Shown: piece after piece, positions 30,741 to 59,457 of the stretch
Numbering within the stretch: the first letter of the stretch is position 1
How the letters are laid out: every line of letters begins with the position of its first letter
Source of the DNA: Vicinamibacteria bacterium
GTDB taxonomy: Bacteria > Acidobacteriota > Vicinamibacteria > Marinacidobacterales > Marinacidobacteraceae
Assembly (NCBI GenBank): GCA_963422395.1
Contig: OY729431.1
Coordinates: 2,080,001-2,144,000 of the forward strand
Length of the DNA stretch: 64,000 bases
Reading direction: 5' to 3'
Translations under genes and position numbers: made by a program
Notes under the pieces: model-generated
Told to the model about the DNA's origin: nothing
Database searches by the model: none
The model's input: the letters and a program-made list of their open reading frames with translations, nothing else

Positions 30741-32645
30741 ATGCACGAGTGGAACTCGAAGGAGGATGAGATCGCCTGGCGTAGCAGCCTGTGGATAAAG
30801 TGGCGCGAGCCCCAAGATCGGGGAGGCGCCCGGCGGACGAGGCGCGATTCGGGAGGCATACCGGGAGTATTCCGACGGAATCGCAACGCCGAGCCAAGCG
30901 TTCAGGCGGGGCCCCCACCGGGAGGACTGGGCATCGCCGACCTTTGGCCGTGTGACTTCGTCCTCAGGCTGCTAGCCTTTGACCCGCGCACCGGGACGCT
31001 GTTCGCCGGGGCGCTGTTCGCCGGATTCGCCCTCATCGCCGAAGGCGCGGCGGACGGACCGCGGTTCGTGGAGGTGACCGAGGCCGCCGGCATCCGTTTC
31101 CTCCACGAAAACGGCGCTTTCGGCGACAAGTACCTGCCGGAGACGATGGGCAGCGGAGTCGCCTTCTTCGACGCCGACGGCGACGGCGACCAGGATCTCC
31201 TCTTCGTGAACAGCCGCCGCTGGCCGGATCGCCGCGAGGGCCCCGCCCCCACCGCCGCGCTCTACCGGAACCGAGGCGACGGCACCTTCGAGGACGCCAC
31301 CGCAGGCTCCGGGCTCGACCTCCCGCTCTACGGCATCGGAGCGGCCATCGCCGACTACGACGGCGACGGCGACCAGGATGTCTATCTGGCGGTGCTCGGG
31401 CCCAACCGGCTGCTCGAGAACGACGGCGGCGGGGCGTTTCGGGAAGCGCCGGCATCGGCATCGGTGGCTCACCCCGGCTTTTCCAGCGGGGCGACCTGGT
31501 TCGACGCCGACGCCGACGGCGATCTGGACCTGTTCGTCCTGAACTATGTCGAGTGGTCCATCGAGGCGGACATCTTCTGCGCCCTCGACGGCGTGCACAA
31601 GAGTTACTGCACCCCGGAGTCCTACGACGGAGCGAGCGCCGCGCTCTACCGGAACGACGGTGCGAACGGCTTCACCGACATCACCGAAGCCGCCGGGCTC
31701 TTCGAGCCGCGCGGCAAGGGTCTCGGGGTGGCGGCGTTCGACTTCGACGACGACGGGCTCCCCGACCTCGCGGTCGCCAACGACACCCAACCCAACTACC
31801 TCTATCGGAACCTCGGAGGCGGGCGGTTCGAGGATGTCGGGGTGCTCGCCGGAATCGCCTTCGCCGAGAACGGAGCTGCGCGCGGAGCGATGGGAATCGA
31901 TGCCTCGGACTACGACGGGGACGGCTGGCCGGACCTCGTGATCGGCAACTTCTCGAACGAGATGGTGTCGCTCTACCACAACGAGGGCGTCGGTTTCTTC
32001 ATCGACCAGGCGCCGGTGTCCGAGATCGGCCGGAACAGCCTGCTCACCCTGGCCTTCGGCGCGTTCTTCTTCGACTACGACCTCGACGGGCGCCAGGATC
32101 TCTTCCTGGCGAACGGCCATGTCGAGAACGAGATCGCCGGAGTCCAGCAGCGGGTCCGCTACCAGCAGCCCCCGCACCTCTTCCGCAACCGGGGCGGCGG
32201 CCGCTTCGTCGAAGTGACCGCGGACTCCCCCGACCTCGCCCGCCCGATGGTCGGCCGGGGTGCAGCCTTCGCGGACATCGACGGCGACGGCGATCTCGAT
32301 CTCGCGGTGAGCGAAAACGGCGGTGCGGCGCGGCTCTTCCGCAACGAGGGCGGAGAACGGAGCGGGTGGGTTGGTTTCCGGCTGCGCGGGCGGAATTCGA
32401 ACCGCGACGGAATCGGTGCGAAGATCACCATCGCCATCGAGGACCGCGGCATGACCCGTACCGAGACCCGTTTCGTGAAGAGCGCCACTGGATACGCATC
32501 CCAGAACCAGCTCGAAGTGGTGGTCGGCCTCGGCCCTGCCGGCCGAGCCGTCTCCGCCGCCGTGATCTGGCCCTCGGGCGCCCGGAGCGAGATCGAGTCC
32601 CCGGAGCCGCGCCGCATCCTGCTCGTCGAGGAGCCCGGACGATGA
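30741..32645 (+). CDS. CRTAC1/ASPIC-UnbV family protein with FG-GAP (VCBS) repeats
   Basis: Repeated DxDGDGDxDL motifs, LYRN.G.G.F, NRDGIGAKI and GYASQN. The 5' end is interrupted by a family A element. Confidence 0.88.
   Translation: MHEWNSKEDEIAWRSSLWIKWREPQDRGGARRTRRDSGGIPGVFRRNRNAEPSVQAGPPPGGLGIADLWPCDFVLRLLAFDPRTGTLFAGALFAGFALIAEGAADGPRFVEVTEAAGIRFLHENGAFGDKYLPETMGSGVAFFDADGDGDQDLLFVNSRRWPDRREGPAPTAALYRNRGDGTFEDATAGSGLDLPLYGIGAAIADYDGDGDQDVYLAVLGPNRLLENDGGGAFREAPASASVAHPGFSSGATWFDADADGDLDLFVLNYVEWSIEADIFCALDGVHKSYCTPESYDGASAALYRNDGANGFTDITEAAGLFEPRGKGLGVAAFDFDDDGLPDLAVANDTQPNYLYRNLGGGRFEDVGVLAGIAFAENGAARGAMGIDASDYDGDGWPDLVIGNFSNEMVSLYHNEGVGFFIDQAPVSEIGRNSLLTLAFGAFFFDYDLDGRQDLFLANGHVENEIAGVQQRVRYQQPPHLFRNRGGGRFVEVTADSPDLARPMVGRGAAFADIDGDGDLDLAVSENGGAARLFRNEGGERSGWVGFRLRGRNSNRDGIGAKITIAIEDRGMTRTETRFVKSATGYASQNQLEVVVGLGPAGRAVSAAVIWPSGARSEIESPEPRRILLVEEPGR
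30785..30971 (+). mobile_element. MITE family A, full copy (187 bp)
   Basis: TIRs CAGCCTGTGGATAAAGT / ACTTCGTCCTCAGGCTG, flanked by GTAG and CTAG. Confidence 0.85.
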
Positions 32646-34666
32646 GGACGGGAGCCTTTCCGAAGTCGGGGGTGCTCTCGACCGGGACAGGCTTCGGGGC
32701 ACTGCTGGCCCTCTTCGCGGTCTCGGCGGGAGGCGCCGCCCCCCGAGCCCAGACCGCACCGCCGCCGCTCGCCGAGCAGTCGGCGATGATGGTGGGTTCC
32801 GGCGAGTGCCTCCTCTGCCACGAGCCGGCACACGAGGCGTGGACCTCCTCCCGTCACTCCAAGATGGTGCAGCCGGCGATTCCCGGGGCGGTCCTGGGCG
32901 ATTTCTCGGTGGAGCAGCTCACCCTGCGGGGTCAGGACTACCGAGTGCGCCGCACCGGTCCGAAGTACTTCATCACCGAGTCCTTCTTCACCGGCGAGCC
33001 AACCGAGCACTCCGTGGAATACACGCTCGGCAACCGCCGCATCCAGCACTACCTCACCACCCTCGAAGACGGGCGGGTCATCGTGCTGCCGCCGACCTGG
33101 GATGTGCTGCGCCGCCAGTGGTTCCACAACCTGGAGATCGCCGCTCCCGACCAGCGGGAGGGCATCGTTCCCGTCCAGCTCTGGAACAAGAACTGTTTCG
33201 GCTGCCATGTGAGCGACCAGGTCAAGGGCTTCCGCCCGGCCGAGGACCGCTACGACACCACCTGGCTCGACTTCGGCACCACCTGCGAGCGCTGCCACGG
33301 CCCCGGCAGCCGCCATGTGGACAAGTACCGGAACCTCGATGCCTACGGGGACGACCCCGAGACCCACATCGTTCAGCAGACCCGGCTCGACTCCGAGCGG
33401 AACTCCATGGTCTGCGCCCAGTGCCACTCCTTCCGCGACCAGATGGCCTTCGGATTCGCCGCCGGGGACGACTACTTCGATTTCTTCTTCCCGCTGCTGG
33501 AGTACACCCAGGAGCCGTCCGAAGACCCGACCTGGTACCTGGACGGCAAGACCCGGCGCTTCTCCACGAACGCCCTCGGCATCTGGCAGAGCGAGTGCTT
33601 CGTGGTCGGGGGCGCGACCTGCACCGGCTGCCACACCGACCCGCACAGGCCTGACATCGAACGGAACGAACAACTCCAGCCGACGAACAACGCCCTCTGC
33701 ACCGGCTGCCACCCAGCGATCGGTGCGAACCTCGCCGCCCACACCTTCCACGCCGCGGACTCGGCCGGCAGCTCTTGCGTGGAGTGCCACATGCCCCGAA
33801 GCGTGACCAGCATCCGGGCCACGATGCGCGACCACAGCATCTCCATTCCCTCGCCGGCGAACACCGCCCGCTTCGGGATCCCGAACGGGTGCAACGGATG
33901 CCACGCCGCCGAAACCCCCGAGTGGGCGGCGGCGCGCATGGACGAGTGGTGGGGCGGCACTCCGCGCCGCCGGAAGATCGAGCGGCGGGCGGCGGCCTAC
34001 GAGGGAGCGCGGAGGCTTTCCCGGGAAGCTCTCGACGGCCTGCTCGCCATCGCCGCCGACGATGGGGAAGGGCCGGTCAACCGGGCGAACGCCGCCGGCC
34101 ATCTCGGACGGTACCTCGCTGCCCCGGCCACCCGGGACGCCGCTGCTTCGGCGCTGGTCGCCGCCGCTTCGGACCCCCACCCGCTGGTGCGGGCGGTGGC
34201 TTCCCTGAAACTCGGCGAGACCGGCGACCCGAACGCGCCGGCAGTCCGGGAGACACTCCTGGAACGGGTCCAGGACGAACGGCGGACGGTGCGGATGAAC
34301 GCGGCCATCTCCCTGCTGAACCTCGGCGTGCGGGAACTTCCCGGAGAGGCGGGCGGGAGCTTCGAACTCGCGAAGAGGCTCCACGGAATCCGAGGCGGCT
34401 TCTTCGCCGACGACGCTCCGCAGCAGCTGAACCTCGGACGGCTCCATGTGCTCGACGGCAACCCGGCGGCGGCGCAGCGCGCTTTCGAGCAGAGTTACCG
34501 CATCGACCCCGACCAGCCCGGCATCCGCTTCTTCATGGCGGTGACCCGGCTCTCCCAGCAGCGGTTCCCCGAAGCCCGGATGTTGCTTCAGTCGATTCCG
34601 CCGGAGGATCCCTTCGCCCAGGAAGCGGCGAACCTGCTCCGCCAGCTCGACCCTCCCGGAAACTAG
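32642..34666 (+). CDS. Octaheme c-type cytochrome with HEAT and TPR repeats
   Basis: ATG overlaps the upstream stop. Signal peptide, eight CxxCH motifs, HEAT (DPHPLVRAVA) and TPR tail. Confidence 0.85.
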   Translation: MRTGAFPKSGVLSTGTGFGALLALFAVSAGGAAPRAQTAPPPLAEQSAMMVGSGECLLCHEPAHEAWTSSRHSKMVQPAIPGAVLGDFSVEQLTLRGQDYRVRRTGPKYFITESFFTGEPTEHSVEYTLGNRRIQHYLTTLEDGRVIVLPPTWDVLRRQWFHNLEIAAPDQREGIVPVQLWNKNCFGCHVSDQVKGFRPAEDRYDTTWLDFGTTCERCHGPGSRHVDKYRNLDAYGDDPETHIVQQTRLDSERNSMVCAQCHSFRDQMAFGFAAGDDYFDFFFPLLEYTQEPSEDPTWYLDGKTRRFSTNALGIWQSECFVVGGATCTGCHTDPHRPDIERNEQLQPTNNALCTGCHPAIGANLAAHTFHAADSAGSSCVECHMPRSVTSIRATMRDHSISIPSPANTARFGIPNGCNGCHAAETPEWAAARMDEWWGGTPRRRKIERRAAAYEGARRLSREALDGLLAIAADDGEGPVNRANAAGHLGRYLAAPATRDAAASALVAAASDPHPLVRAVASLKLGETGDPNAPAVRETLLERVQDERRTVRMNAAISLLNLGVRELPGEAGGSFELAKRLHGIRGGFFADDAPQQLNLGRLHVLDGNPAAAQRAFEQSYRIDPDQPGIRFFMAVTRLSQQRFPEARMLLQSIPPEDPFAQEAANLLRQLDPPGN

Positions 34667-44417: not shown

Positions 44418-44918
44418 ATGTCCACCGTCACTCTGGGCGGCGCTCCCTTCGCGATCTCGGGCGAAATCCCGCGCGTCGGGAACGCCGCTCCCGAATTCAC
44501 CCTCACCGGGAGCGATCTCGGCGAGGTGTCGCTCGCCGACTACGCCCGAAGGAAATTGGTCCTCAACATCTTTCCGAGCGTGGACACTCCGGTATGCGCC
44601 GCGTCGGTGCGGCGCTTCAACGAAGCTGCCGCCGGCCTCGAAGAGGTCTCGGTCCTTTGCGTCTCGCGCGACCTTCCGTTCGCCCAGAGCCGTTTTTGCG
44701 CGGCCGAGAACATCGAGGGAGTCGCCTGCGCCTCCGAGATGCGCGACCACGCCTTCGGCGAGGCCTACGGCCTCCGCATCACCGAAGGGCCCTTGGCCGG
44801 CCTCTTCGCCCGGGCGGTCGTGGTGGTGGACGGCGACGGAACGGTCCTCCACTCCCAGCTCGTTCCCAAGATCGAGGACGAACCCGATTACGACGCCGTA
44901 CTGGCGGTCTGCGCCTGA
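44418..44918 (+). CDS. tpx: Thiol peroxidase
   Basis: GAGG RBS. NIFPSVDTPVC, SRDLPFAQSRFC and EPDYD motifs. Confidence 0.95.
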   Translation: MSTVTLGGAPFAISGEIPRVGNAAPEFTLTGSDLGEVSLADYARRKLVLNIFPSVDTPVCAASVRRFNEAAAGLEEVSVLCVSRDLPFAQSRFCAAENIEGVACASEMRDHAFGEAYGLRITEGPLAGLFARAVVVVDGDGTVLHSQLVPKIEDEPDYDAVLAVCA

Positions 44919-45013
44919 TCTGCCCTCCGAGCGGCCCCCGCTCCCGAGCAGAAGGTTCCGGGTTGGATTCCGGTCGGGGACCCTCGACCGGGAGCCCCTC
45001 GCTACTCGGCAAT

Positions 45014-45038
45014 GCCGTGTGACTTCGTCCACGGGCTG
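45014..45038 (+). mobile_element. Solo right end of MITE family A
   Basis: GCCGTGTGACTTCGTCCACGGGCTG followed by CTAG; one mismatch to 54807-54831. Confidence 0.75.
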
Positions 45039-45084
45039 CTAGAATTCAGGTGTCGCTTCTTCGTGCGCCCACCCATCTGAGATC

Positions 45085-45756: not shown

Positions 45757-45824
45757 GCAGGCGGCGAAGCGCCGGTCGCCGCGACTGCCGGAAGCCATCG
45801 GCTGCCAGGCCGCCGCGGACAGAA

Positions 45825-47480: not shown

Positions 47481-48013
47481 ACGAACACTCCGCTGCCCCC
47501 ACGGAAGCCGACCCCAGCACAAACGCCAGCACAAACGCTGGTCGGGAGCAGACCTTCGAGACGATCGAGGCACAGCTCGAAGCGATCACCGAGAAGCTCG
47601 AGGAGCCGACCGTGCCTCTCGAGGAAAGGCTTCGGTTGCACGCCCGGGCCGTCCGGCTGCACGCAACGCTCGAAGGGAAACTCGACGCCGCCGAGAAGGC
47701 GATCCAGGCGGCAGAGAAGGCCGCCGTCCCGGCCGAGCCGGACGGCGAGCCCTATGAGGCGGTTCGCGACCGGCTGGCCGAGATCGTGAACGCACTCGAA
47801 AACGAGGAACTGCCGCTCGACCGGGTCGTTGCGCTCCATCTCCAGGCAGGCCAGCTGGCGGCGCGGTGCGAAACCATTCTGAAGACCGCCCGGACGCAGC
47901 TCGATGCAGTTGCCGAGCCGCCCTCCGACGGCTCCGAGGAGCCGGATCCGGCCCCCGTCCCTCGCGCGGACCCAGGCTCGGCCGAAGAGTGGGACGATCC
48001 ACCGCCCTTCTAA
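47477..48013 (+). CDS. xseB: Exodeoxyribonuclease VII small subunit, two tandem domains
   Basis: GGAGG RBS and GTGA overlap with xseA. Two copies of the F/YE....L..I...LE....PLE/D pattern. Confidence 0.75.
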   Translation: MNEHSAAPTEADPSTNASTNAGREQTFETIEAQLEAITEKLEEPTVPLEERLRLHARAVRLHATLEGKLDAAEKAIQAAEKAAVPAEPDGEPYEAVRDRLAEIVNALENEELPLDRVVALHLQAGQLAARCETILKTARTQLDAVAEPPSDGSEEPDPAPVPRADPGSAEEWDDPPPF

Positions 48014-48122
48014 CAGCCTGCGCCGCAGAAAACGATGACCCCCATACGGAGCAGGTCGATTCGTCGATGACCACTACATATGGTGGTAGATCGTGCTTGG
48101 AATCGTTCGCCGGCACAGGCTG
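48014..48122 (+). mobile_element. MITE family C, full copy (109 bp)
   Basis: TIRs CAGCCTGCGCCG / CGGCACAGGCTG, flanked by CTAA and CCAG. Shares CTGCGCCGCAGAAA and CATATGGTGGTAG with the IS end at 59116-59155 (reverse strand). Confidence 0.75.
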
Positions 48123-49114
48123 CCAGCCCTTGTCCCCGAGCTCGCCAAGGCTCTCCCTCGACACCTTCTTCGACCGCTCCCTCGGAGCCGAGCAGTGACG
48201 AGCCGCCGCGCGAACTCGACCACTTTCTCGCTTCCTGTGCACAGGAGGTGGAGGCCTTTCTCGATGGTGCGCTGCCGCCGGCGAACGGTGTTTTCGGCTC
48301 GTTGGGCCGGGCCATCCGCTACGCGGCGCTCGGCGGCGGCAAGCGGGTTCGGCCGGCGCTCGCCATGGCCTCGGCGCTCGCCGTCGGCGGGCAGAGGAAG
48401 GATGCGCTCGCCGCCGCCGCCGCAGTGGAGATGATCCACACCTATTCGCTGATCCACGACGACCTGCCGTGCATGGACGACGATGACCTCCGCCGTGGAA
48501 AGCCGACCGTTCATATCCGGTTCGGGGAGGCGATCGCGGTTCTCGCCGGGGATGCGCTCCACACCCTGGCTTTCACGGTGCTTTCGGGGAGTGAAGCACC
48601 GGAAGCGGTGCGCCTCGAATCCGTTCGGCGTCTCGCCGAAGCCGCCGGACCCGCCGGGATGGCAGGAGGGCAGGCGCTCGACATGGAAGCCGAGACCCGC
48701 TCTCCCGGCGCCCGCGGACTGGAATCCATCCATCGCGCGAAGACGGGGGCCCTGTTCGGCGCTTCTACCGCGCTCGGCACCCTCGCCGGCGGCGGCGATC
48801 CGGCGCAGGTGGAAACGGCGGCCCGTTTCGGCGTGGAGCTAGGGCTCGTCTTCCAGATCGTGGATGACCTCCTCGACGAAGAGCAGCCGAGCGCGGCGCT
48901 CGGCAAGGCTTCCGGGAAAGATCGGGCCGCCGGAAAGGCGACCTACCCGGCGATCCACGGACGAGCGGCAGCGCGTGCCGAAGCCTGCCGGCGGGCGGCT
49001 GCAGCGGGCCGGATGCTCGCATCATGGAAAGACCGGGCGGCCGATGCGTCGAGCTGCCGCGGGGTGAGACTGCTCGGGCTGCTGGCCGAGCGCGTGGTGG
49101 CTCGAACCACCTGA
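48080..49114 (+). CDS. ispA: Geranyltranstransferase / FPP synthase
   Basis: GGKRVRP, EMIHTYSLIHDDLPCMDDDDLRRG, GQALD, KTGAL and FQIVDDLLD motifs. Start uncertain. Confidence 0.92.
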   Translation: MVVDRAWNRSPAQAASPCPRARQGSPSTPSSTAPSEPSSDEPPRELDHFLASCAQEVEAFLDGALPPANGVFGSLGRAIRYAALGGGKRVRPALAMASALAVGGQRKDALAAAAAVEMIHTYSLIHDDLPCMDDDDLRRGKPTVHIRFGEAIAVLAGDALHTLAFTVLSGSEAPEAVRLESVRRLAEAAGPAGMAGGQALDMEAETRSPGARGLESIHRAKTGALFGASTALGTLAGGGDPAQVETAARFGVELGLVFQIVDDLLDEEQPSAALGKASGKDRAAGKATYPAIHGRAAARAEACRRAAAAGRMLASWKDRAADASSCRGVRLLGLLAERVVARTT

Positions 49115-49122
49115 TTCCTCCC

Positions 49123-50166
49123 GTGGCCGCGAAGACGACGACCCGTCCCCGCCTCCGGAACCGGGGCGCCGCCTCGGAATCGGGACGCCGCTTCCGCCCG
49201 CCGACTGGACGCCCGCTTCGGATCGGTATCGTCGCCAAGACCACTGCGCCCGAGACCGGGGACACCATGCGCGGACTCACGCGCTGGCTCGAGAGCCGCG
49301 GCGCCCGTCCCGCGCTGGAAGCAGATCTCGCGGAACGGGCGGGCTGGACCGGGGAGTCGTTTCCGCTCCCGGAAGTGGCGAAGGAGCGAGACTTCGCTCT
49401 GGTCCTCGGCGGAGACGGCACCCTGTTGTCGGTGGCGCGCGCGATGGGAATCCACCAGATCCCCATCTTCGGAGTGAACCTCGGAAGCCTCGGCTTCCTG
49501 ACGAACGCGCCGCTCGACCAGCTCTATCCGGGGCTCGAAATGATCCTGGAGGGCGAGGGGGTCCTGGATGGACGATCCACCTTTCGGGCCGCCCTCTTCC
49601 GGGGAGGGGAAGTCGTCCGCGAGGATCTGGCCGTGAACGATGTGGTCATCACCGGAAGCGCCATCGCGCGCGTGATCGAGGTGCGGATCACCAGCAGCCT
49701 GGGATTCGTGGCGACGGTACACGGCGATGGAGTCATCGTGGCGACCCCGACCGGTTCCACCGCCTACAACCTCGGCGCCGGCGGGCCGGTGGTTCACCCG
49801 GCGGTGGATGCCCTCATCCTGGCGCCCATCGTCCCCCTCACCCTGACCCAGCGGCCAGTGGTGTTTCCCGACAACGAAGAGCTCTCTCTGACCCTCAGGG
49901 GTCGAAAACGGCAGGTTCGGGCGACCTTCGACGGTCAGGAGAGCGAGAAGATGGAGCTTGGCGATGTGCTCAGAGTCCGGAAATCGGAAGTGAGGCTCCA
50001 GCTACTCGGCCTGCCGGATCAGAACTACTTCCGGGTCCTGCGCAAGAAGCTGCTCTGGAGCGCGCTGCCTCCCAAGCGGGCGCGTGCGGTCGCGCCCACT
50101 CCCCCCGACCAGGGAAACGAGTCCGGCGTGAAGGTCGGCATCGCTCGCTCGGGTGTCTCTTCATGA
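49123..50166 (+). CDS. nadK: NAD kinase
   Basis: LGGDGTLL, GVNLGSLGFL, VNDVV and DGVIVATPTGSTAYNL motifs. Start approximate. Confidence 0.93.
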   Translation: MAAKTTTRPRLRNRGAASESGRRFRPPTGRPLRIGIVAKTTAPETGDTMRGLTRWLESRGARPALEADLAERAGWTGESFPLPEVAKERDFALVLGGDGTLLSVARAMGIHQIPIFGVNLGSLGFLTNAPLDQLYPGLEMILEGEGVLDGRSTFRAALFRGGEVVREDLAVNDVVITGSAIARVIEVRITSSLGFVATVHGDGVIVATPTGSTAYNLGAGGPVVHPAVDALILAPIVPLTLTQRPVVFPDNEELSLTLRGRKRQVRATFDGQESEKMELGDVLRVRKSEVRLQLLGLPDQNYFRVLRKKLLWSALPPKRARAVAPTPPDQGNESGVKVGIARSGVSS

Positions 50167-50274
50167 ACACCTCTCTCGGGAGTCCGTCTCCCCCAAGCCC
50201 AGTATCCAGAATCGGGAGAGAGGGGGTGTCCCCTTTTCTCAGGAAGTGAGAACTCCCATCCGAATCGCTGTCAG

Positions 50275-50302
50275 CAGCCTGTGGAAGTCGCGCGAGCCCC
50301 AA
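50275..50302 (+). mobile_element. Left end of MITE family A abutting the family B array
   Basis: CAGCCTGTGGAAGTCGCGCGAGCCCCAA versus CAGCCTGTGGATGAAGTGGCGCGAGCCCCAA. Confidence 0.65.
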
Positions 50303-50307
50303 CCCCG

Positions 50308-51053
50308 CCCGAGAGAGCCTCGACCCCCAGTCCGTGGCCTAAAAAACACCTGTTGCGACCGAAGCTCCGCTTCGGGCGCGGCACAGCGGGGGTATGTGTG
50401 AAAGGGGGTCCACCCCCTTTCACAGAATTCGTGACTCGGAATCCGAAATCGCTGCCTCCGGCAGCAGTTCGGATTCCCGGCGCAGAGCGCCGAGCGTTCC
50501 GGGAGCGGGGCGTCCCGCTCTTCCCACGAGAGTGCGAGACGACATCACGCCCCGAGAGAGAGCCTCGACCCTCTCCGTGGCCTAAAAAACACCTGTTGCG
50601 ACCGAAGCTTCGCTTCGGCGCGGCGCAGCGGGGGTATGTGTGAAAGGGGGTAGACCCCCTTTCACAGAATTCGTGACGCAGAATCCGAAATCGCTGCCTC
50701 CAGCAGCAATTCGGATTCCCGGCGCGAAGCGCCGGGCGTTCCGGGAGCGGGGCGTCCCGCTCTTCCCACGAGAGTGCGAGACGACATCACCCCCCGAGAG
50801 AGAGCCTCGACCCCCAGTCCGTGGCCTAAAAAACACCTGTTGCGACCGAAGCTCCGCTTCGGGCGCGGCGCAGCGGGGGTATGTGTGAAAGGGGGTCCAC
50901 CCCCTTTCACAGAATTCGTGACTCGGAATCCGAAATCGCTGCCTCCGGCAGCAGTTCGGATTCCCGGCGCGAAGCGCCGGGCGTTCCGGGAGCGGGGCGT
51001 TCCGCTCTTCCCACGAGAGTGCGAGACGAAATCACGCCCCGCTCCCGGAACGC
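50308..51053 (+). repeat. Tandem array of three ~243-bp structured repeats (family B)
   Basis: Units start at about 50308, 50551 and 50793. They are near-identical, and each has several hairpins. Confidence 0.95.
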
Positions 51054-52133
51054 TCAGTGTTCGAGTCGGTTGACGACCCGGAACACTCCGGGAGTGCTCC
51101 GGGCGATGGACTCGAGGATCCGCGATTCGATGGAGCTGCGCACGACTCCGGTCAGCGCCACCACCCCGCGCGAGACCACGATGTGGATCGGTGGATTCAC
51201 GCGGTTCGCGCGGTCCGAGAATCGCGGGTCCCGGTATATCCGGTAGTACAGGGCGCTCCGGAGGTCCTGGTCGTTGGGGGACAGCGGTAGCACCTCAATC
51301 CGGTTGTCCACGCTTTTCACTCCGAAGACCCGGGCGACCCGGCTCTCGATCTCCGTCTTCTTGAAAGGCTCGGTGACGGCGCCGATGAGCACGATCTCGT
51401 ACGGTTCCTCCATCCCGAAGTTGATGTCGTCGAACACCGTGTAGTACGAGTAGCGCAGGACCGCACGGCGGACACCCTCGACGAGATCCTCCATGCTCTC
51501 CGGCTCGGCGATTTCGAGGTCGGGATCCACTGCAACCACTCCGGCCACCGACTCGGCTCGTTCCACCACCTCGCGCCATTCCCAGGCGTTCGCGACCTGG
51601 CCGGTCAGTCGGACCACGCCTTCGTTCACACTCACGCGGGGATCCTCGGCCTCGAGGTCCGCCGCGGCAATTCCGGCGGCCACCTCAGCGCTCACCGCGG
51701 CATCGGCGCGGGACGCAGTCCCGGGTTCGGCCGCGGGGGGCGGCGAAGCTTCGGCCGCTTCCAACCCCTCTGCCTCCCGGTTCCGAACCGCCGCTTCGCC
51801 CACCTCCGTCTTCCGGTCGCTCGCAGACTCCGACTCCGGATCCGCGGGACCTAGGGGATCGAGCACGACGATTTCGGTTTCGACCGCAGTGACACCCTCC
51901 ACGAAGAGCGCGATCTCGACGACCCGCAAGCGGGTCGCCTCGTCCAGCACTTCGCCGGACAGAATCGCCACGCCGTCGCTCACCTCCACTTCGAAGAGGC
52001 CGACGGCCAGATCGGCCGCTTCGATAGCTTCGGCGATCTCCTCGGTGAGCCGGGTGTCGGACCGGGGCTGCTCCGCAGCGGAAAGGGGAAGCGCCGACAC
52101 GGCGAACAGCAGTAATGGGAACAGGTTGCGCAT
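51054..52133 (-). CDS. Multi-BON-domain protein (about 4 BON domains)
   Basis: Signal peptide and repeated V..GVV.L.G.V ... GV..V.N.L motifs. Confidence 0.85.
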   Translation of the reverse strand: MRNLFPLLLFAVSALPLSAAEQPRSDTRLTEEIAEAIEAADLAVGLFEVEVSDGVAILSGEVLDEATRLRVVEIALFVEGVTAVETEIVVLDPLGPADPESESASDRKTEVGEAAVRNREAEGLEAAEASPPPAAEPGTASRADAAVSAEVAAGIAAADLEAEDPRVSVNEGVVRLTGQVANAWEWREVVERAESVAGVVAVDPDLEIAEPESMEDLVEGVRRAVLRYSYYTVFDDINFGMEEPYEIVLIGAVTEPFKKTEIESRVARVFGVKSVDNRIEVLPLSPNDQDLRSALYYRIYRDPRFSDRANRVNPPIHIVVSRGVVALTGVVRSSIESRILESIARSTPGVFRVVNRLEH

Positions 52134-52260
52134 GATTCTCGACCTCATCGTTTTCGGACTTCTCGAGAAACGCAACTGTCATGCCGCAGCACGACTGCGG
52201 GCAGTCCGTTCCCGGAGCGGCGCGAGCTTCCGGACCGGGGTTCTCCCGGTGGGGCCCCGG

Positions 52261-52382
52261 CTGAACCGCTTCGCTCTTCATTGCAAATCCGTCGGAATAC
52301 GCCCGGTATGCCTCCCGATTCGCGCCTTGTCCGCCGGGGGCCTCCCCGATCTCGGGGCTCGCGCCACTTTATCCACAGGCTG
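52261..52382 (-). mobile_element. MITE family A, partial copy
   Basis: Reverse complement of the left about 120 bp of family A. Ends ATCCACAGGCTG followed by CTAG. Confidence 0.82.
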
Positions 52383-52396
52383 CTAGTCTCGTCCCC

Positions 52397-52885
52397 ATGG
52401 GCGAACGACCCCGCCGCTACTGGCTGATGAAGAGCGAACCCGAGGCCTACAGCCTCGACGACCTCGAGCGGGACAAGACGACTCACTGGGACGGCGTCCG
52501 GAACTTCAAGGCACGCAATCTGATGAAGGACATGGAGATCGGCGACGGAGTGCTCTTCTACCACTCGAACGCCAAACCTCCCGGCATCGCCGGGGTCGCG
52601 CGAGTCTCCCGGAAAGCGTATCCGGACTTCACCCAGTTCGATCCGGACTCGAAGTACCACGACCCGCGCGCCACTCGAAAGAAGCCGTGGTGGTACATGG
52701 TGGACATCGAGTTCGTCTCGCGCTTTCCCGAAGAGATCGCACTGCCGGTGCTCCGCCAGCTGCCCGAGCTCGAAGGCATGGCTCTCCTGAAACGGGGTCA
52801 ACGGCTTTCCGTGCAGCCGGTGACCCCCCAGGAGTGGGCGTTCCTCCTCGATTTCGGCAGGCGCGGCCGAAGCCGCGGCGGCTGA
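52397..52885 (+). CDS. EVE domain protein
   Basis: YWLMKSEP, WDGVRN..ARN, FYHS, AYPD.TQFD and RLSVQPV motifs. Confidence 0.93.
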   Translation: MGERPRRYWLMKSEPEAYSLDDLERDKTTHWDGVRNFKARNLMKDMEIGDGVLFYHSNAKPPGIAGVARVSRKAYPDFTQFDPDSKYHDPRATRKKPWWYMVDIEFVSRFPEEIALPVLRQLPELEGMALLKRGQRLSVQPVTPQEWAFLLDFGRRGRSRGG

Positions 52886-52992
52886 ATTCGGTAGCCCCGC
52901 GGAAACTCTCCGGGCGGCAGGCGGGTCGCCGCGGCGCGTTCACGAGGCCCCTGCCCCGGTACACTTTCCGCTGTTTTCTCTTGGAGGCCTTC

Positions 52993-54297
52993 ATGTTCCC
53001 ACGCGCCGCGCTCACCGCACCGCTCCTCGCCCTCACCGCCGCCTCCGCCGCTGCCCAGGAAGTCGGCGCCTGGGACGACCGCATCCAGGATGCCGTCTCG
53101 CACCATGAGGAACAGTCGGTCGCCTTTCGCCACCAGGTCCACCAGTTCCCCGAACTCGGAAACCGCGAATTCGAGACCGCGCGTCTCGTTGCGGAGCATC
53201 TCCGCGAGCTCGGTTTCGATGAGGTCCGCGAGGGAGTCGCCCACACCGGCGTCGTCGGTGTGTTGCGGGGCGGCAAACCGGGCGCAGTCGTCGCGGTCCG
53301 CGCCGACATGGACGCTCTGCCCGTCACCGAGGACACCGATTTCGAATTCGCTTCCACCGTCAGAACGACATACAACGGTCAGGAAGTCGGGGTCATGCAC
53401 GCCTGCGGGCACGATGTCCACACCGCGGTGCAATACGGAGTCGCCTCGGTGCTCGCCGGAATCCGGGAGGACATTCCCGGAACGATTCTCTTCATCTTCC
53501 AACCCGCCGAAGAAGGCCCCCCGCCGGGCGAAGAGGGAGGCGCCGAGCTCATGGTCCACGAGGGCGTCTTCGACGATCCCCGGCCGCAGGCGATTTTCGG
53601 ACTCCACACCCTGTCCGGACTACCGCTCGGAGTGATCGGGTTCACTCCGGGGCCAGCGCTCGCTGCGGTGGATCACTTCCAGGCGACGATCACCGGCGTG
53701 CAGACCCACGGCGCGCAGCCGCAGGCGGGAGTGGACCCGGTCGTGATGGCGGCGCAGACGATCCTCTCGCTGCAGACCATCGCCTCCCGGAATGTCCACC
53801 CGCTCCAGCCGGTCGTGGTGACCGTAGGCATGGTGAACGGAGGCCAGCGCTTCAACATCATCCCGGAATCCGTTGCGATCGAGGGGACCGTTCGGACCTA
53901 CGACCCCGAAGTGCGTGATCTCGTGGAAAGGCGAATGCACGAGGTGCTCGGCGGAATCACCGCTTCCGGCGGCGGCTCCTACTCCCTGACCTACGACCGC
54001 GGCTCCCCCGCAACGATCAACGATCGGGAGCTCACCGCCGAGAGCATTCTCACGGTCCGGCAGATCGTGGGCGCCGACAACACCCAGGAGCTCGATCCGA
54101 CGATGGGCGGTGAGGACTTCTCCTACTTCGCGAACGAGGTCCCGGGGTTCTTCTACCGGCTCGGGATCCATCGCGAAGGGACCCGGACCGGTCCGCACCA
54201 CTCCCCGTTCTTCCGTGCTGACGACGATTCGGTGGCGATCGGGATGCGGGTGATGTCCAACCTCCTGGTGGATTACCTGCTTCGGAACGCCTCCTGA
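52993..54297 (+). CDS. M20 family amidohydrolase, secreted
   Basis: GGAGG RBS, signal peptide, RADMDALP, MHACGHD, FQPAEE and EDFS motifs. Confidence 0.92.
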   Translation: MFPRAALTAPLLALTAASAAAQEVGAWDDRIQDAVSHHEEQSVAFRHQVHQFPELGNREFETARLVAEHLRELGFDEVREGVAHTGVVGVLRGGKPGAVVAVRADMDALPVTEDTDFEFASTVRTTYNGQEVGVMHACGHDVHTAVQYGVASVLAGIREDIPGTILFIFQPAEEGPPPGEEGGAELMVHEGVFDDPRPQAIFGLHTLSGLPLGVIGFTPGPALAAVDHFQATITGVQTHGAQPQAGVDPVVMAAQTILSLQTIASRNVHPLQPVVVTVGMVNGGQRFNIIPESVAIEGTVRTYDPEVRDLVERRMHEVLGGITASGGGSYSLTYDRGSPATINDRELTAESILTVRQIVGADNTQELDPTMGGEDFSYFANEVPGFFYRLGIHREGTRTGPHHSPFFRADDDSVAIGMRVMSNLLVDYLLRNAS

Positions 54298-54312
54298 CTA
54301 CGGACCGCCGTC

Positions 54313-54835
54313 CTAGCAGCCTGTGGATGAAGTGGCGCGAGCCCCAAGATCGGGGAGGCGCCCGGCTGACAAGGCGCGATTCGGGAGGCATACCGGGTGT
54401 ATTCCGACCGAATCGCAACGCCGAGCCAAGCGTTCAGCCGGGATGCATCGCCGGTCGACGGCCGTGTGACTTCGTCCACAGGCTGCTAACAGCCTGTGGA
54501 TGAAGTGGCGCGAGCCCCAAGATCGGGGAGGCGCCCGGCTGACAAGGCGCGATTCGGGAGGCATACCGGGTGTATTCCGACCGAATCGCAACGCCGAGCC
54601 AAGCGTTCAGCCGGGATGCATCGCCGGTCGACGGCCGTGTGACTTCGTCCACAGGCTGCTAACAGCCTGTGGATGAAGTGGCGCGAGCCCCAAGATCGGG
54701 GAGGCGCCCGGCTGACAAGGCGCGATTCGGGAGGCATACCGGGTGTATTCCGACCGAATCGCAACGCCGAGCGAAGCGTTCAGCCGGGATGCATCGCCGG
54801 TCGACGGCCGTGTGACTTCGTCCACAGGCTGCTAA
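54313..54835 (+). mobile_element. Head-to-tail triple array of MITE family A (3 x 169 bp, 173-bp period)
   Basis: Copies at 54317-54485, 54490-54658 and 54663-54831. 17-bp TIRs CAGCCTGTGGAYGAAGT. Junctions CTAG, CTAA, CTAA, CTAA. Confidence 0.92.
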
Positions 54836-56376
54836 CCCACCACCCGAACCCGCACCCGTCGAGCTCCGCCGGGCAGGTAGGCGAGCGGAAGGTCCTCGCG
54901 CTCGACGGTCTCGAGACTCGACGGATCGGCCCCGGCGGCGACCGCCCGAGACTTCGCTTCACGGGTCGCCGTTTCGAACGCCTCCTGGCGGCTGACTCCG
55001 TGGAACACCCGGTCCACTTCGCCTCCGATTCGGGCGATCGCGGCACCGACGGCATTGGCGACGCCGGCGTGCGGGACCGTGACCGTTTCCGAAATCCCGT
55101 CGAGCTCTGGCGGAACCAGAAACGCGGCTCCTCCAACGGCCACCAGAGGACGCTCGCGGGCGTCGGGTTTCATCCGATCCACCGCCTCGGCGATCCGCCC
55201 TCGAACCGCAGCGGCGAAGCGCCGGACGCTCTCCGCGGGCAACCGGGAGACGCGGCGGGGATCCCCGACCTCGGTCCAACCGGCAGCGACTCCGAAGTCG
55301 GTAGCAGTGGGCGTCTTCCCGCCGAAGACGAGCCCCTGCTCCATCAACCGGAACCCCACACTCTCCGGTCCGATCCGAATTCCGTCCGCTGAAACCAGGC
55401 TCCCGCCGCCGAGTGCGAGCGAGATCAGATCGGGCATCCGGAACAGGGTCCGCACCCCGCCCACTTCCACTTCCCGCGGTGCCTCCCGCGGGAAGCCGCC
55501 GCGCAGGTAGCCCACATCGGTGGTGGTCCCGCCCGCATCCACGACCACCGCATCCGCGGCGCCGGAGAGGAAAGCCGCGCCGGTCATGCTGTTCGTGGGG
55601 CCCGAGGAGAGACTCAGCACCGGGAACTCGCGAGCCGCCGAAGCGCCGGCGATCGTGCCGTCGTTCCTGGAGAGGAACAGCGGTGCGCCCGTGCCCGCCT
55701 TCTCCATCGCTTCGGTGAATCCGGCCGCCGCCCGGCCCGCGAGCGGCCGGAGCGCGGCGTTCAGGAGGCCGGCGTTTTCACGGCCGAGCAGTCCGATTCG
55801 GGAAAGCCGGCGAGACTCGGTGATGGACACCTCCGGGTACTCCTCCCGGAGGATCTCGGCGGCCCGGGCTTCGTGGCTCCCGTCGAGCGGAGAGAACACC
55901 GCGCAAAGCGCGATCTCCCGGATGCCGGCCTTTCGGGTTTCGCGCGCCGCTGCGCGAACCGCAGCCTCGTCGAGCGGGACGATGGGCCTTCCGTCACATT
56001 CATGGCCTCCCTCGACCAGGAAGACCGGCCCGCGGACGCGGCGAGCGAGTCCCGGGGGCCAGTCACAGAACGGAGGGAGGGAGGCGCTCGCCGGAAGCCC
56101 GATCCGAACCGCCGCCACCCGCTCGAGACCCGAACCGGTCAGTACCGCGTTCGTGAAGTGGGTGGTTCCGATCACCACCCGGGCGGCATCGGGTGCCCGG
56201 TCCGCATCTCGGAGAACCCCGCGAAGAGCGGCGGCGATCCCCGCGGTGACATCCTCGGTCGTCCGGGTCTTGACCGCAGCGAGCACTTCGGCTCCGCTCA
56301 TCAGCACGGCATCGGTGTGGGTGCCCCCGACATCCACTCCGACCCGCGGGCGGGGCGGCGGCGAAGCGGTGCTCAC
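54832..56376 (-). CDS. Hydantoinase/oxoprolinase family protein
   Basis: GVDVGGTHTDAV, IGTTHFTNA, SSGPTNSM.GA, DAGGTTTD and ANAVGAA motifs. Confidence 0.9.
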   Translation of the reverse strand: MSTASPPPRPRVGVDVGGTHTDAVLMSGAEVLAAVKTRTTEDVTAGIAAALRGVLRDADRAPDAARVVIGTTHFTNAVLTGSGLERVAAVRIGLPASASLPPFCDWPPGLARRVRGPVFLVEGGHECDGRPIVPLDEAAVRAAARETRKAGIREIALCAVFSPLDGSHEARAAEILREEYPEVSITESRRLSRIGLLGRENAGLLNAALRPLAGRAAAGFTEAMEKAGTGAPLFLSRNDGTIAGASAAREFPVLSLSSGPTNSMTGAAFLSGAADAVVVDAGGTTTDVGYLRGGFPREAPREVEVGGVRTLFRMPDLISLALGGGSLVSADGIRIGPESVGFRLMEQGLVFGGKTPTATDFGVAAGWTEVGDPRRVSRLPAESVRRFAAAVRGRIAEAVDRMKPDARERPLVAVGGAAFLVPPELDGISETVTVPHAGVANAVGAAIARIGGEVDRVFHGVSRQEAFETATREAKSRAVAAGADPSSLETVEREDLPLAYLPGGARRVRVRVVG

Positions 56377-57458
56377 CGGAACAGCGGCTGAAAATCGAAG
56401 TCGAAGCCGAAGGCCCTCGGCCCGACGAGATCGAGCGCTGCCGGGGTCTTGAGCGCTGCCGGAACGTCGAGAGCGATCACCCGCACCCGCTGGCCGTACG
56501 CGATCACTTCGGTCCCGAGCGCCTCTCCGGTCCCGGAGTCCAGAACGCAAAGAATCTCCGGGGTCGTCCCGACGGGCTCGCCGTCACGGAGAGCGACCGC
56601 GAACTCGTTCTGGAAATGGAGATCCATGGTGGCGCCGCGGTCCTCACCGAGCCCCGCGATCCGCGCGGTTCCGCGCAGGAATCCCCGGGTCGTGAGACGC
56701 TCGATATCGGACACTTTCCCGGCGAAGAGCGAAAGTCCGCCCTCCCCGGCGAGCACCGCTTCCACCGGATCCTCGTGCCGCTCACGCGCTCGGCGCAGGG
56801 CCGCGCCGATCCGGAGCGCCCGGGTCACGGACCCCTGGACCGCGAAGTCCTTGACTTCGCGACCAGTCCGCGGAGCCTTCGCGGTGGCGGCGATGGATCC
56901 CACCTCGGTCACCGCAACTCGGCCGAGCCGCTCCTGCCATTTCCAGCTCGCTGCTCGGTCCACGATCACGATGTTGTCCCGGATATCGGCGAGACAGAAC
57001 GGGTAGTTCCTGAGCCCCGCTACTGCGAAGGTGGTCATCTGCGCCTCGGGGAACGCCCGCCCCATGGAGTCGGCATCCACCACGGGAAGCGCGGTCCGCG
57101 CCGCCACCAGGAAACTCTGGAGTGCGTTGGAACCGCCGATCTCGAGCGACATCACCGCCGCGAAGGGCCGACCGAGCCGTTCCGCGAGCACTCGCACCGG
57201 GCGGGCCGCGATCTCGGGATCCGGCAACCGTTCCTCGCCGACGAGTGGAGCCCCCATGGTCGAAACCACCGCCACCAGATGATCGTCGTCGAGTGCCTCC
57301 GACGGGATCAACCGAGGGCGAAATCCACGCTTCGCCTCCTGACGCAGGTTCAGCAGCGAGTGGTATGGATCGCCGCCGCCCCCGGCGCCGAGAATCCAGG
57401 CTCCGGCCGCGAGATCCTCGATCTCGAAGGCATGAAGCTCCCGTTCGCCCGCAAACAC
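56373..57458 (-). CDS. DUF917 family protein
   Basis: LGAGGGGDP, MGAP, EIGG.N, D.MGRAFPE.QM, FQNE and PE.LC.LD motifs. Coupled to the hydantoinase gene. Confidence 0.85.
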   Translation of the reverse strand: MFAGERELHAFEIEDLAAGAWILGAGGGGDPYHSLLNLRQEAKRGFRPRLIPSEALDDDHLVAVVSTMGAPLVGEERLPDPEIAARPVRVLAERLGRPFAAVMSLEIGGSNALQSFLVAARTALPVVDADSMGRAFPEAQMTTFAVAGLRNYPFCLADIRDNIVIVDRAASWKWQERLGRVAVTEVGSIAATAKAPRTGREVKDFAVQGSVTRALRIGAALRRARERHEDPVEAVLAGEGGLSLFAGKVSDIERLTTRGFLRGTARIAGLGEDRGATMDLHFQNEFAVALRDGEPVGTTPEILCVLDSGTGEALGTEVIAYGQRVRVIALDVPAALKTPAALDLVGPRAFGFDFDFQPLFR

Positions 57459-57654
57459 CGGCGAGCGATGCTAGGAGTCTGCGCCGCAGGAAGGTTGGGG
57501 CGGATCGGGGGTTCGGGAGCGCGTGGGAGATTCGGGGGTTCGGGAGCGCGTGATCGGAGTCATGGGGCGGGATCGCGCAGTTTTCGGGCGGGAGGGGAGT
57601 TCGGGAAGGCGCTCCGGAGGGCCATTGGGCGCCAGGGCGGGGCGGGGCAGGCGT

Positions 57655-58980
57655 TTACGCTGCCAGCAACCCCGGGAGCCGTCGCAGGTTCAACGCCAGG
57701 CAGACCAGGTCCCACTCTCCTTGCGCCTTGCGCAGCCCCCGGAAGCTGAACCGCCGGAACCCCATCACCTCCTTGATCCACCCGTGGGGCGCCTCGGACA
57801 GCCACTTCCGCGCCGCGTAGATCTTTCGCCCGGCGTGAGCCGCCAGTTTTTCTCTCATCCGGCGGGTCGCCGGGTGATGCTTCGCGGGAGTGCCCGCCGC
57901 CCGCTTCCGCCCTTCCCGTCCGACGGCGACATACCCGTCTATCCCGCGGGTTTCCAGCAGTGCCAGGTCCCGCTCGTTGCAGTATCCGGCATCAGCCAAC
58001 ACCACCGCCGGCACCGCGCCCAACTCTTCTCGCACCCGGTCCAGCAGCGCCGGCAGCTGCCCCTGGTCGCCCGCATTCGCCGTCAGCTGGTTCGACACCA
58101 CCAGCTGGTTCTCTCCGTCCACCGCCATCTGCGCGTTGTAGCACTGCTGGAACCCCTCGGCGCTCGTCTTCATGATCCGGCTCTCGGGGTCGGTGAAGTT
58201 CCCCTGCGCTTCCGCCTTCGGCTCCCCATGCGCGCGCTGGTAGCGCCGACCGTTCCCCGGACTGTGGGTCTGTCCGGGGACCCGCCCCCGCGCCTCGTCC
58301 CGCGCCCGCTGCTCCGCTTCCAGCTGCACCTTCGCCGCCCGGATCGCCGCCAACCGATCCTCCCGGCGCCGCAGCTCAGCCGGCAACTCGTCGCCGCGCC
58401 GCTCCGCCCCGTGGGCTGCGTCCTCCCGCTCGTCGGTCTCTCCCGCCTGCTCCAAATATCCCGCGATCTCCGCCGCAAGCCGCCGCTCCTCGGCCAGCAT
58501 CCGCCCATAACTCATCGCCTTGCGCTTGCTCGCGTTCGCCCGAACCTTCACCCCGTCCAGCGATAGCCTGCCGAAACGCACCAGCCCGCACTGCCGCGCC
58601 ACCCGCACCACCTCGACGAACAACTCCCGGAAATCCCCCAGATGCCGACGACGAAACTCGCAGATCGTCCGGTGCCTCGGGAAGTTCCTCGCCGCCAGCA
58701 TCCGAAACGCCACGTCCTCTTCCAGCTTCCGCGCAATCCCACGCGACGAAAACACCCCCGTCGCATAAGCGTAGATCAGCACCTTCACCATCATCCGCGG
58801 GTCATACGGCGCGTTCCGCCGCCCGTCCCCCGCATACGGCGCGTAGAACGCAGACAAGTCCAGCTCGTCCACCACATCGCTGATGTGATGCGCCAAATGC
58901 CCCTCCGGAACCCACTGCCGCAGATCCGGCGGCAACAAGAGCAGCTGCCCCGGCTGATACTGACGAAAACGCGTGCCCAT
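57655..58980 (-). CDS. IS1182-family DDE transposase
   Basis: PYDPRMMVKVLIYAY..GVFSSR.I, LDGVKVRANAS, TDPESRIM, YNAQ, LADAGY and E..HG.IK..MGFRRF..RG motifs. ORF intact. Confidence 0.92.
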   Translation of the reverse strand: MGTRFRQYQPGQLLLLPPDLRQWVPEGHLAHHISDVVDELDLSAFYAPYAGDGRRNAPYDPRMMVKVLIYAYATGVFSSRGIARKLEEDVAFRMLAARNFPRHRTICEFRRRHLGDFRELFVEVVRVARQCGLVRFGRLSLDGVKVRANASKRKAMSYGRMLAEERRLAAEIAGYLEQAGETDEREDAAHGAERRGDELPAELRRREDRLAAIRAAKVQLEAEQRARDEARGRVPGQTHSPGNGRRYQRAHGEPKAEAQGNFTDPESRIMKTSAEGFQQCYNAQMAVDGENQLVVSNQLTANAGDQGQLPALLDRVREELGAVPAVVLADAGYCNERDLALLETRGIDGYVAVGREGRKRAAGTPAKHHPATRRMREKLAAHAGRKIYAARKWLSEAPHGWIKEVMGFRRFSFRGLRKAQGEWDLVCLALNLRRLPGLLAA

Positions 58981-59026
58981 CGGAACCATCCCTCCCCGGA
59001 TCCGAGACGCCCTCGCCCCTTTTCCG

Positions 59027-59050
59027 TAAGTGTATGATATAAATGAGTTA
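59027..59050. promoter_or_regulatory. AT-rich imperfect palindrome, overlapping IHF-like sites upstream of transposase
   Basis: TAAGTGTATGATATAAATGAGTTA; each strand matches WATCAANNNNTTR with one mismatch. Confidence 0.4.
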
Positions 59051-59159
59051 TATGCCACGCAACCGTGTCGCCCCCCGGTCCCAACTCCCGAGCAGCCCGA
59101 CCGTCCGCTCGTCGCTACCACCATATGGCCCGCCCCGTTTCTGCGGCGCAGACTGCTAG

Positions 59160-59457
59160 CAGCCAGCTGTGCGATTCGGGGGCGGGGCGTAAAGATCGTG
59201 TTGCGTTTCGAACCCTCTATGGGAAGAGCGGGACGCCCCGCCCCCGAATCGCCCGGCGCTCCGCGCCGCGAATCCGAACTGCTGCCGCTCACGCCCCATC
59301 CCCAGATTCAGTGCGCAACCAAGCTGGATCGGGCGGCAGCGAGTCCGATTCGGTGTCACCAATTCGTGAACGGGGGTGAACCCCCTTTCACACTTTCCCA
59401 CGCTGCGACGCTCCCGAAGCTCCGCTTCGGGCGCAACATGTGTTTTTCCGGCCACGG
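59160..59457 (-). repeat. Structured repeat family B, single copy abutting the IS target site
   Basis: Homologous to 24506-24768 and to the reverse complement of the 50308 unit. Begins CAGCC directly after CTAG. Confidence 0.8.

Follow-up and report, generated by a model that had tools for sequence, protein, structure and literature searches.

Mobile-element ends in predicted core promoter boxes of a Vicinamibacteria genome probably rebuild the promoters and leave the genes switched on

Mobile elements whose ends complete a promoter together with the flanking DNA are known from several bacteria. The closest cases are the Correia elements of Neisseria (CREE), the hybrid promoters formed by various insertion sequences (ISs) and IS5 of E. 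coli. Here, we compare these systems with a window of 64,000 nucleotides (contig OY729431.1, positions 2,080,001–2,144,000, assembly GCA_963422395.1) from a Vicinamibacteria bacterium. [quoted passage not shown] Based on sequence comparison, these ends probably rebuild the promoter whose core box they occupy, so that the genes would stay switched on.

CREE are TA-duplicating MITEs located mostly 5' of genes, and their “Black promoter” combines a -35 and a partial -10 from the element, the latter being completed by some insertion sites (PMC2649163). Their target repeats resemble the -10 hexamer, favouring fusion promoters (PMC9330008). The elements described here are similar to CREE in duplicating TA, in lying 5' of genes, in forming a putative promoter across the junction and in contributing a partial -10 (TA). 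However, CREE provide a -35 and a partial -10, whereas the present elements provide TGn and TA, with no -35-like hexamer 16–18 nt away at the two junctions scanned, which makes for a different architecture, although the principle is similar. Further differences are that the boxes are native and pre-date the insertion, so that a promoter would be kept and not made, that many of the genes are predicted to be leaderless, that the presumed parent transposase is of the IS1182 type, and that the host is acidobacterial.

In the hybrid promoters of IS1, IS2, IS256, IS982 and others, a -35 in the IS end is paired with a -10 in the flank at 16–18 nt (PMC11894529; PMC9330008). As in these, element end and flank would here form one promoter. 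Whereas IS hybrid promoters usually activate silent or resistance genes, we propose that insertion here takes place within the -10, supplies TGn and preserves housekeeping promoters. IS5, which recognises YTAR and duplicates 4 bp of target, forms a fusion promoter at fucAO; this is the IS5-internal transposase promoter, activated by an upstream Crp site (PMC11894529). The transposase superfamilies of IS5 and of the elements in question are related (DDE_Tnp_1 with DUF772), and both prefer CTAG/CTAA; in contrast to IS5 at fucAO, the -10 lies at the junction and not in an IS-internal promoter. In high-G+C bacteria, the leaderless signature is a TANNNT motif with weak middle positions, some 10 nt ahead of the start codon (PMC3160421). 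The present genome carries the same signature as leaderless genes of Actinobacteria and Deinococcus-Thermus, but its host belongs to the class Vicinamibacteria and G leads at box position 3.

In the literature searched, we found no account of element ends supplying TGn at -10 insertions, nor of any of this in the phylum, and nothing useful on the target rules of IS1182. Relative to known junction promoters, the apparently new features are insertion inside native boxes, TGn in place of a -35, and leaderless housekeeping genes. Insertion into a core promoter is usually thought harmful, whereas this element family appears to live in housekeeping -10 boxes without breaking them. If transcription data confirm this, insertions into promoters could be neutral under a simple sequence rule, upstream regulatory DNA could be exchanged while the core promoter stays, and the extended -10 motifs of a little-studied phylum might have originated in this way. 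Leaderless, -35-less promoters seem to be common in Vicinamibacteria, which is relevant to gene-start annotation there.

Element ends and -10 boxes across the genome

The genome (G000) is represented by one contig of 2.908 Mb with 68.4% G+C and is the sole member of its genus in the comparison; its relatives were 18 genomes from six other genera of the same family, which are kin, so that their loci are not independent of one another. No claim is based on the unpublished genome G027. Gene starts (2208 genes) were taken from our own crude codon-usage caller, for which TANNNT is not an input. Element ends were collected with a 20-nt pattern allowing ≤3 mismatches, which gave 173 ends in G000; 160 were kept after removal of 5 with identical flanks and 8 abutting another element. 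Free CTAG sites were read both ways, and TGn counts in relatives were made by eye from upstream sequences.

The ends of the MITEs and of some IS1182-family ISs finish with ...CCACAGGCTGC adjoining a duplicated TA. Among the 160 ends, TA is followed by G at 92, by A at 49, by C at 11 and by T at 8, which defines a target of about YTAR; within it CTAG is the most preferred site. CTAG is rare in the genome (669 sites in 2.9 Mb). TA is certainly duplicated on insertion. The original prediction had named CTAG as the target, and this stands insofar as CTAG ranks above all other YTAR sites; as a 4-bp duplication it fits only 17 of 45 complete elements and fails in 28.

Upstream of called genes, the number of genes with TANNNT is 31 at a gap of 6 nt to the start, 39 at 7 nt, 33 at 8 nt and 28 at 9 nt, as against ~5–8 at gaps of 16–22 nt, whereas the control motif ATNNNA is flat; a Shine-Dalgarno peak is also present before the called genes of G000. 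The TANNNT peak, together with nine element junctions at gaps of 6–12 nt, agrees with the suggestion that the mRNAs may be leaderless. Among the native boxes at gaps of 6–12 nt (n = 175), the leading hexamers are TAGAAT (21), TAGCAT (14), TAGACT (13) and TAGGAT (10), and 75 boxes have G at position 3. Since the elements seek TA and prefer TAG, and TAGNNT is the commonest kind of native box, the elements meet -10 boxes.

TANNNT occurs at 43 of the 160 element ends. These are concentrated at ends that have a called start no more than 150 nt ahead of them (32/60), compared with 8/58 at other intergenic ends and 3/42 at ends facing into genes; gene-facing versus remaining ends (11/100) gave P = 9e-9 in Fisher's test. 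It had been predicted that, at element ends, T would be enriched as the base closing TANNNT and that a start codon would follow at short distance. Both are observed: T closes the hexamer at 36 of 92 TAG-flanked ends and at 200 of 1249 free CTAG sites (P = 5e-7), and a called start lies at a gap of 6–12 nt behind 9 of 92 TAG ends and 18 of 1249 free sites (P = 4e-5). Seen from the target side, elements occupy 25 of 105 gene-facing CTAGNNT sites and 51 of 659 other intergenic CTAG sites, a ~3-fold difference (P = 5e-6), and element ends make up about a third (9/27) of the CTAG-type leaderless boxes in G000. The genes behind the junctions include those for ClpX, SecA, AccD, CTP synthase, RsgA, HisG and ParA. 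An extended -10 layout, with TGn directly before TAnnnT, is found at 27 of the 32 gene-facing TANNNT junctions.

The two end types are about equally frequent overall (77 versus 70). At junctions 13–24 nt before the start, by our own count, the gene-facing end is ...GCGCCACTTCATCCAC (L-type) 10 times and ...GTGTGACTTYGTCCAC twice (binomial P = 0.039). CA at distal flank positions 2–3 was seen at 19 of 160 ends; in many of them it belongs to a TAGCAT box or to the end of an adjacent element, which confounds the count as a test of a TGnTA preference.

The occupied boxes in relatives and in the window

The comparison with relatives that lack the element at a given site identifies the hexamers before the EVE, ParA, ClpX, accD, pyrG, S-Me-THD (formerly DUF917) and polysaccharide deacetylase genes as native, conserved putative -10 boxes. 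The EVE case is located in the window. The gene is assigned to EVE by Pfam (E 4.7e-57), and the relatives carry TGGTAnnnT followed by 7–10 nt and GTG or ATG in 11/11 loci, while G000 has TGC-TA-GTCT, 7 nt and ATG. As originally noted, 7 nt (cgtcccc) separate the end of TAGTCT from the ATG at 52397, and this interval contains neither a Shine-Dalgarno sequence nor a purine-rich stretch. The sequence evidence thus fully supports an insertion at 52381 in a putative native, extended -10, leaderless promoter.

At ParA, the relatives show TGnTAnnnT in 10/17 loci; one of them reads TGGTAGCCTtcgccc... / TGGTAGCCTtcgcccggtctgATG, and G000 reads TGCTAGCCTtcgaccc... / TGCTAGCCTtcgacccgtcgtcATG. Most relatives (L062–L078) also have the palindrome TGTTTCACGTGAAACA 20–40 nt upstream of the ParA box (about 25 nt), which we take to be a match to the parS consensus. 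The idea that upstream regulatory DNA is replaced finds its example here, as this palindrome lies next to the ParA box in relatives and a MITE separates the two in G000. For accD, 16/17 relatives have TGnTAnnnT 10–12 nt before the start; for pyrG, TGn is present in 8/17 (TGGTAAACT, TGCTACCAT or TGTTACGAT) and missing in 3. In G000 both boxes are element junctions.

The ClpX, S-Me-THD and deacetylase boxes are conserved without TGn. The nearest relative has tcgCTAGAATgggaagcgcGTG (CTAGAAT) before ClpX and another genus has ggCTACAAT, while G000 has TGCTAGAATcgagagcgctGTG. S-Me-THD relatives show CTAGCAT or TTAGCAT, 7–10 nt and ATG, and deacetylase relatives show CATAGAAT, 7–8 nt and ATG. An eighth set, before HIT genes, has ...CTG(C/T)TAGnGT 7–9 nt before the start in 14/17 relatives and an element junction in G000; a clear element end lies behind some of these and not behind others. 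The TGn of this set is possibly element-derived. A native TGn therefore occupies the place where the element's TGC now stands in 4 of 7 resolved gene sets (EVE, ParA, pyrG and accD), or 5 of 8 counting HIT. Compared with 14 of 125 native boxes at gaps of 6–9 nt in G000 (11%), TGn promoters are over-represented among the occupied ones.

The S-Me-THD box has been struck twice in G000, the earlier insertion being a repeat from a different family and the later one an IS1182-family IS. Before the IS came between them, the end ...CAGCTGGCTG of the former adjoined the same CTAG. In agreement with the original description, removal of the IS joins ...GGCTG on the minus strand to CTAGCAT, 9 nt before the GTG. 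The box is thus native and was kept across two insertions, the TG of the first repeat having since been lost.

The four TG-bearing motifs of the original prediction lie where it had placed them (Table 1). The pattern TGCTAGNNT has 4 matches in the window, with 0.82 expected, and 4 were reached in 1 of 100 shuffles. All three element junctions among them are formed by a common repeat end, ...ACTTYRTCCACRGGCTGC, followed by TA. At 45037, the sole alignable relative has a box, TACAAT, ~25 nt further upstream of a common ...ttcaggtgt... stretch. No left inverted repeat was found between the stop of the Redoxin gene (44918) and the element end at 45039. For the 223-aa protein downstream, originally called CarD-like, neither Pfam nor NCBIfam names a family. 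A search for a classical -35/-10 pair at two window junctions found none, which fits a -35-independent promoter.

Retention of the junctions and competing explanations

Several boxes have been hit independently by different elements. The ClpX box is also occupied in the relative G002, with the opposite end type toward the gene, and the accD box is occupied in G006 by a different element; the pyrG box of G006 has a similar end, for which shared and independent insertion are alike possible. The same end pattern is found in five relatives, with 334 ends in G014, 121 in G007, and 28, 37 and 7 in three others; the copy numbers of G014 and G007 indicate that the elements burst recently in part of the family's lineages. 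For 30 sampled TANNNT junctions from these five genomes, a start codon within 12 nt opening a frame of at least 260 codons was present in 9 (three run off the locus). In G000, the partner end is missing at 17 of 23 promoter-abutting ends (TANNNT, start within 60 nt) and at 55 of 128 others (P = 0.007). The inner parts of the elements are also more diverged at promoter-abutting ends, the last 20 nt being fixed by the search pattern and hence uninformative. Both findings mark the promoter-side ends as older and more truncated, and both favour retention. T at box position 6 is enriched in the copy-poor relatives (6/28, 10/37 and 2/7) but not in the copy-rich ones (29/334 in G014, 17/121 in G007), nested copies being included in both groups and tandem copies in the latter. 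The lack of enrichment in G014 and G007 favours retention over a built-in preference of the elements for TANNNT. Given this, the higher occupancy of promoter CTAG sites could reflect longer survival, attraction or both.

The explanation we favour, to which we assign a probability of roughly two in three, is that the elements insert in native -10 boxes, keep the hexamer, place TGC at the position of TGn, exchange the DNA upstream and are retained at the junction. The commonest -10 box, TAGNNT, often lies 6–12 nt before the start, which would make its TA a frequent landing place. Through the TA duplication the gene-side copy would keep the whole hexamer, and the element's terminal three bases, mostly TGC but in some cases TGT, would fall at -15 to -13, the TGn position of an extended -10. 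The DNA further upstream would be swapped for element DNA while the promoter core survives, and insertion would be tolerated even before essential genes (clpX, secA, accD, pyrG, rsgA and hisG). The junction would then outlast the decay of the rest of the element because its loss would cost the promoter. Transcription is expected to start about 7 nt after the junction hexamers.

With respect to the original prediction, we consider it largely right. That elements land in -10 boxes agrees with the excess of TANNNT at gene-facing ends and with the native boxes of relatives, one of its junctions (30970) being excepted. That the elements supply the TG extension is borne out by TGC at the native TGn place of EVE, ParA, pyrG and accD, but not by the three sets lacking TGn or by the conservation of TG at promoter ends. 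As for promoters being preserved or created, preservation is seen at native boxes, and no case of a new promoter was shown.

A more modest account would treat the junctions as a by-product of target choice: TA and CTAG would be concentrated in -10 boxes at 68% G+C, the hexamer would suffice, and TG would serve transposition only. Several observations that weigh against our preferred explanation speak for this one. Promoter ends do not retain TG better than other ends do, with TG present at 27 of 32 gene-facing TANNNT ends and at 119 of 128 others, and native TGn is a minority feature in G000, with the 11% given above and just 3 of 75 among TAG-type boxes. The promoters of ClpX, S-Me-THD and the deacetylase never have TGn in relatives. 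In G000, the IS end …GACTCC now stands before the S-Me-THD box, which hence lacks TG, and the ORF is intact. The rarity of CTAG also agrees with a by-product. Other points adverse to our preferred explanation concern the sites and the counts. At the deacetylase junction, G000 reads TAC-TAGAAT, with TAC and not TGC. In relatives, the target at 30970 is ...GCCTGGCGTGACCTCTGA, the 3' end of an upstream ORF (...AWRDL-stop), immediately followed by the start of an FG-GAP/ASPIC gene; the element of G000 sits in ...CG-TA-GCCTTTGA, with no in-frame ATG, GTG or TTG before 31068 and no start at leaderless distance, and this TANNNT lies in the last codons of the upstream ORF and is not a promoter box. 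The copy-rich relatives show no enrichment of T, as described above. Finally, the contig start recurs at the contig end (G000:C1:1-35903 versus 2872300-2908270, 98.5–99.4% identity), and from this 35.9-kb repeat only ends with identical flanks were dropped from the counts; over-assembly of a circular genome, or the presence of two strain variants, is the probable cause, in which case the true genome size would be ~2.87 Mb. Nonetheless, a by-product seems unlikely to us, as random choice among CTAG sites leaves the ~3-fold higher occupancy of promoter sites unexplained, and as the family-wide TGn of four in seven sets (five in eight with HIT) far exceeds its share of native boxes in G000 and is the very motif that the element restores. 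Whether TG itself contributes to transcription is close to a coin toss, with a contribution likely at about even odds.

The junction hexamer would be irrelevant if an element-internal promoter drove transcription, or if upstream transcription read through into the gene. Correia elements, MITEAba12 and other MITEs are described as containing sigma-70-like promoters (PMC10969869), and the excess of the L-type end at junctions 13–24 nt from the start could mean that this end contains something more. This is quite improbable, however, because the two scanned junctions yielded no -35/-10 pair, because such transcripts would have leaders devoid of a Shine-Dalgarno sequence, as before EVE (cgtcccc ATG), because the same conserved boxes stand at the same distance from the start in element-free genomes, and because such junctions are formed by either end type and by more than one family of elements. 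The start caller is crude and TANNNT is short, so that chance or a gene-calling artefact also had to be weighed; we give it very little credence, given that the caller ignores TANNNT, that the enrichment stands against equally treated free CTAG sites, that the pattern recurs in other genera and that base-by-base comparisons of orthologues agree.

Insertion in native boxes with retention of the junction could be extended by regarding the ends as promoter mimics. The terminal ...GCTGC plus TA would copy the upstream half of the local extended -10, the -10 boxes of essential leaderless genes would be havens in which deletion is selected against, and decayed ends would have become the TGn of many promoters in the family. 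Native sites that resemble ...GCTGC plus TA are GCTGGTA, TCTGCTA or TCTGTTA, and the HIT, accD and pyrG promoters of other genera carry only ...CTG(C/T)TA before the box. We regard this extension as tentative, and its odds as poorer than even.

The elements and other features of the window

The short-element family of G000 comprises ~100 MITEs of 175–225 bp (104–111 BLAST matches in 2.908 Mb). Their small size, inverted ends, high copy number and 45 complete pairs are those of MITEs, and they are too short for a transposase gene. Their two kinds of end, ...GCGCCACTTCATCCACAGGCTGC and ...GTGTGACTTYGTCCACAGGCTGC, are each followed by TA. The IS at the S-Me-THD gene has inverted repeats and direct repeats at its ends (CTAG-GAGTCTGCGCCGCAG... 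and ...CTGCGGCGCAGACTG-CTAG), and its transposase matches NF033551 with 371.1 bits (cut-off 270) as well as Pfam DUF772, DDE_Tnp_1 and DDE_Tnp_1_6. This IS1182-family IS is present in three full-length copies in G000. Intact copies and MITEs have only the last 7–8 bases in common. A possible parent of the MITEs at 1313395–1314807 (1413 bp) combines MITE-like termini with a degenerate IS1182-like ORF, which scores 117 bits on NF033551 (cut-off 270).

The duplication of TA within CTAG had led us to consider an IS630/Tc1-mariner parentage, but no match to PF13358 (DDE_3) was found in G000, whereas control genomes matched; we therefore assign the short elements to MITEs of the IS1182/IS5 kind. Two further candidates were set aside: the segment 2267370–2268740 of G000 as a full-length parent element, of which only the ends are repeated, and the ORF 51054–52175 of the window as a transposase, which encodes a BON-domain protein instead.

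Table 1. Features of the window and their positions (. denotes no strand assigned)
Feature	Position	Strand	Remarks
Native motif TGCTAGGAT	30691–30699	+	No element end upstream; 13 nt before ATG 30713 and 41 nt before ATG 30741; sequence only
Complete MITE, 189 bp	30784–30972	.	TA at 30782–30783 and 30973–30974; right junction TGCTAGCCT 30970–30978
Truncated element end, variant family ...ctcggcaatgccgtgtgacttcgtccacgggctgc	44985–45039	+	Left limit approximate
Junction TGCTAGAAT	45037–45045	+	TAGAAT 39 nt before TTG start of 223-aa protein, 45085–45756
Truncated MITE	52240–52383	+	Only the half with the L-type end remains; inverted repeat 146 nt, 88%; between BON-domain gene 51054–52175 (minus) and EVE gene
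Junction TGCTAGTCT	52381–52389	+	Hexamer TAGTCT 52384–52389; EVE gene 52397–52885
Three head-to-tail MITE copies	54313–54836	.	173-bp period; copies 99% alike, with a single CTAA common to neighbours
Hexamer TAGCAT	57468–57473	minus	9 nt before GTG start 57458 of S-Me-THD (formerly DUF917) gene 56373–57458
IS1182-family IS	57475–59155	minus	Transposase gene 57655–58980 (minus); CTAG at 57471–57474 and 59156–59159
Remnant of second repeat family	59160–59457	.	Related to 24561–24769 and 50302–51041; end ...CAGCTGGCTG

The complete MITE at 30784 lies within an ORF of 634 aa (30741–32645), which begins with a remnant of the upstream gene (MHEWNSKEDEIAWR...), runs in frame through the whole MITE and continues into the FG-GAP/ASPIC (CRTAC1-like) gene. 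The predicted FG-GAP/ASPIC protein may now be fused to residues encoded by the MITE; alternatively, the gene's function may be impaired. Tandem MITE runs like that at 54313–54836 were also observed in the relative G007. The second repeat family, of ~245 bp, is characterised by a conserved hairpin (...GTGAAAGGGGGTnnACCCCCTTTCAC...) and forms three tandem copies at 50302–51041, with single copies elsewhere, including 24561–24769. Contigs of four DNA runs over window positions 44500–59600 break at repeats and none of those listed spans an empty site, which is evidence neither way.

A lone IS1182-type end, ...GCGGCGCAGGCTGTTA, is located at 48011–48020 (minus strand) beside a 39-nt stretch, 48029–48067, that recurs at 16183–16221. 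At the level of the genome (2.9 Mb), there are just 57 TTAA and 561 ACGT sites, compared with 25632 for GATC and 26155 for TCGA; so strong an avoidance of TTAA and ACGT suggests restriction systems or mutational bias.

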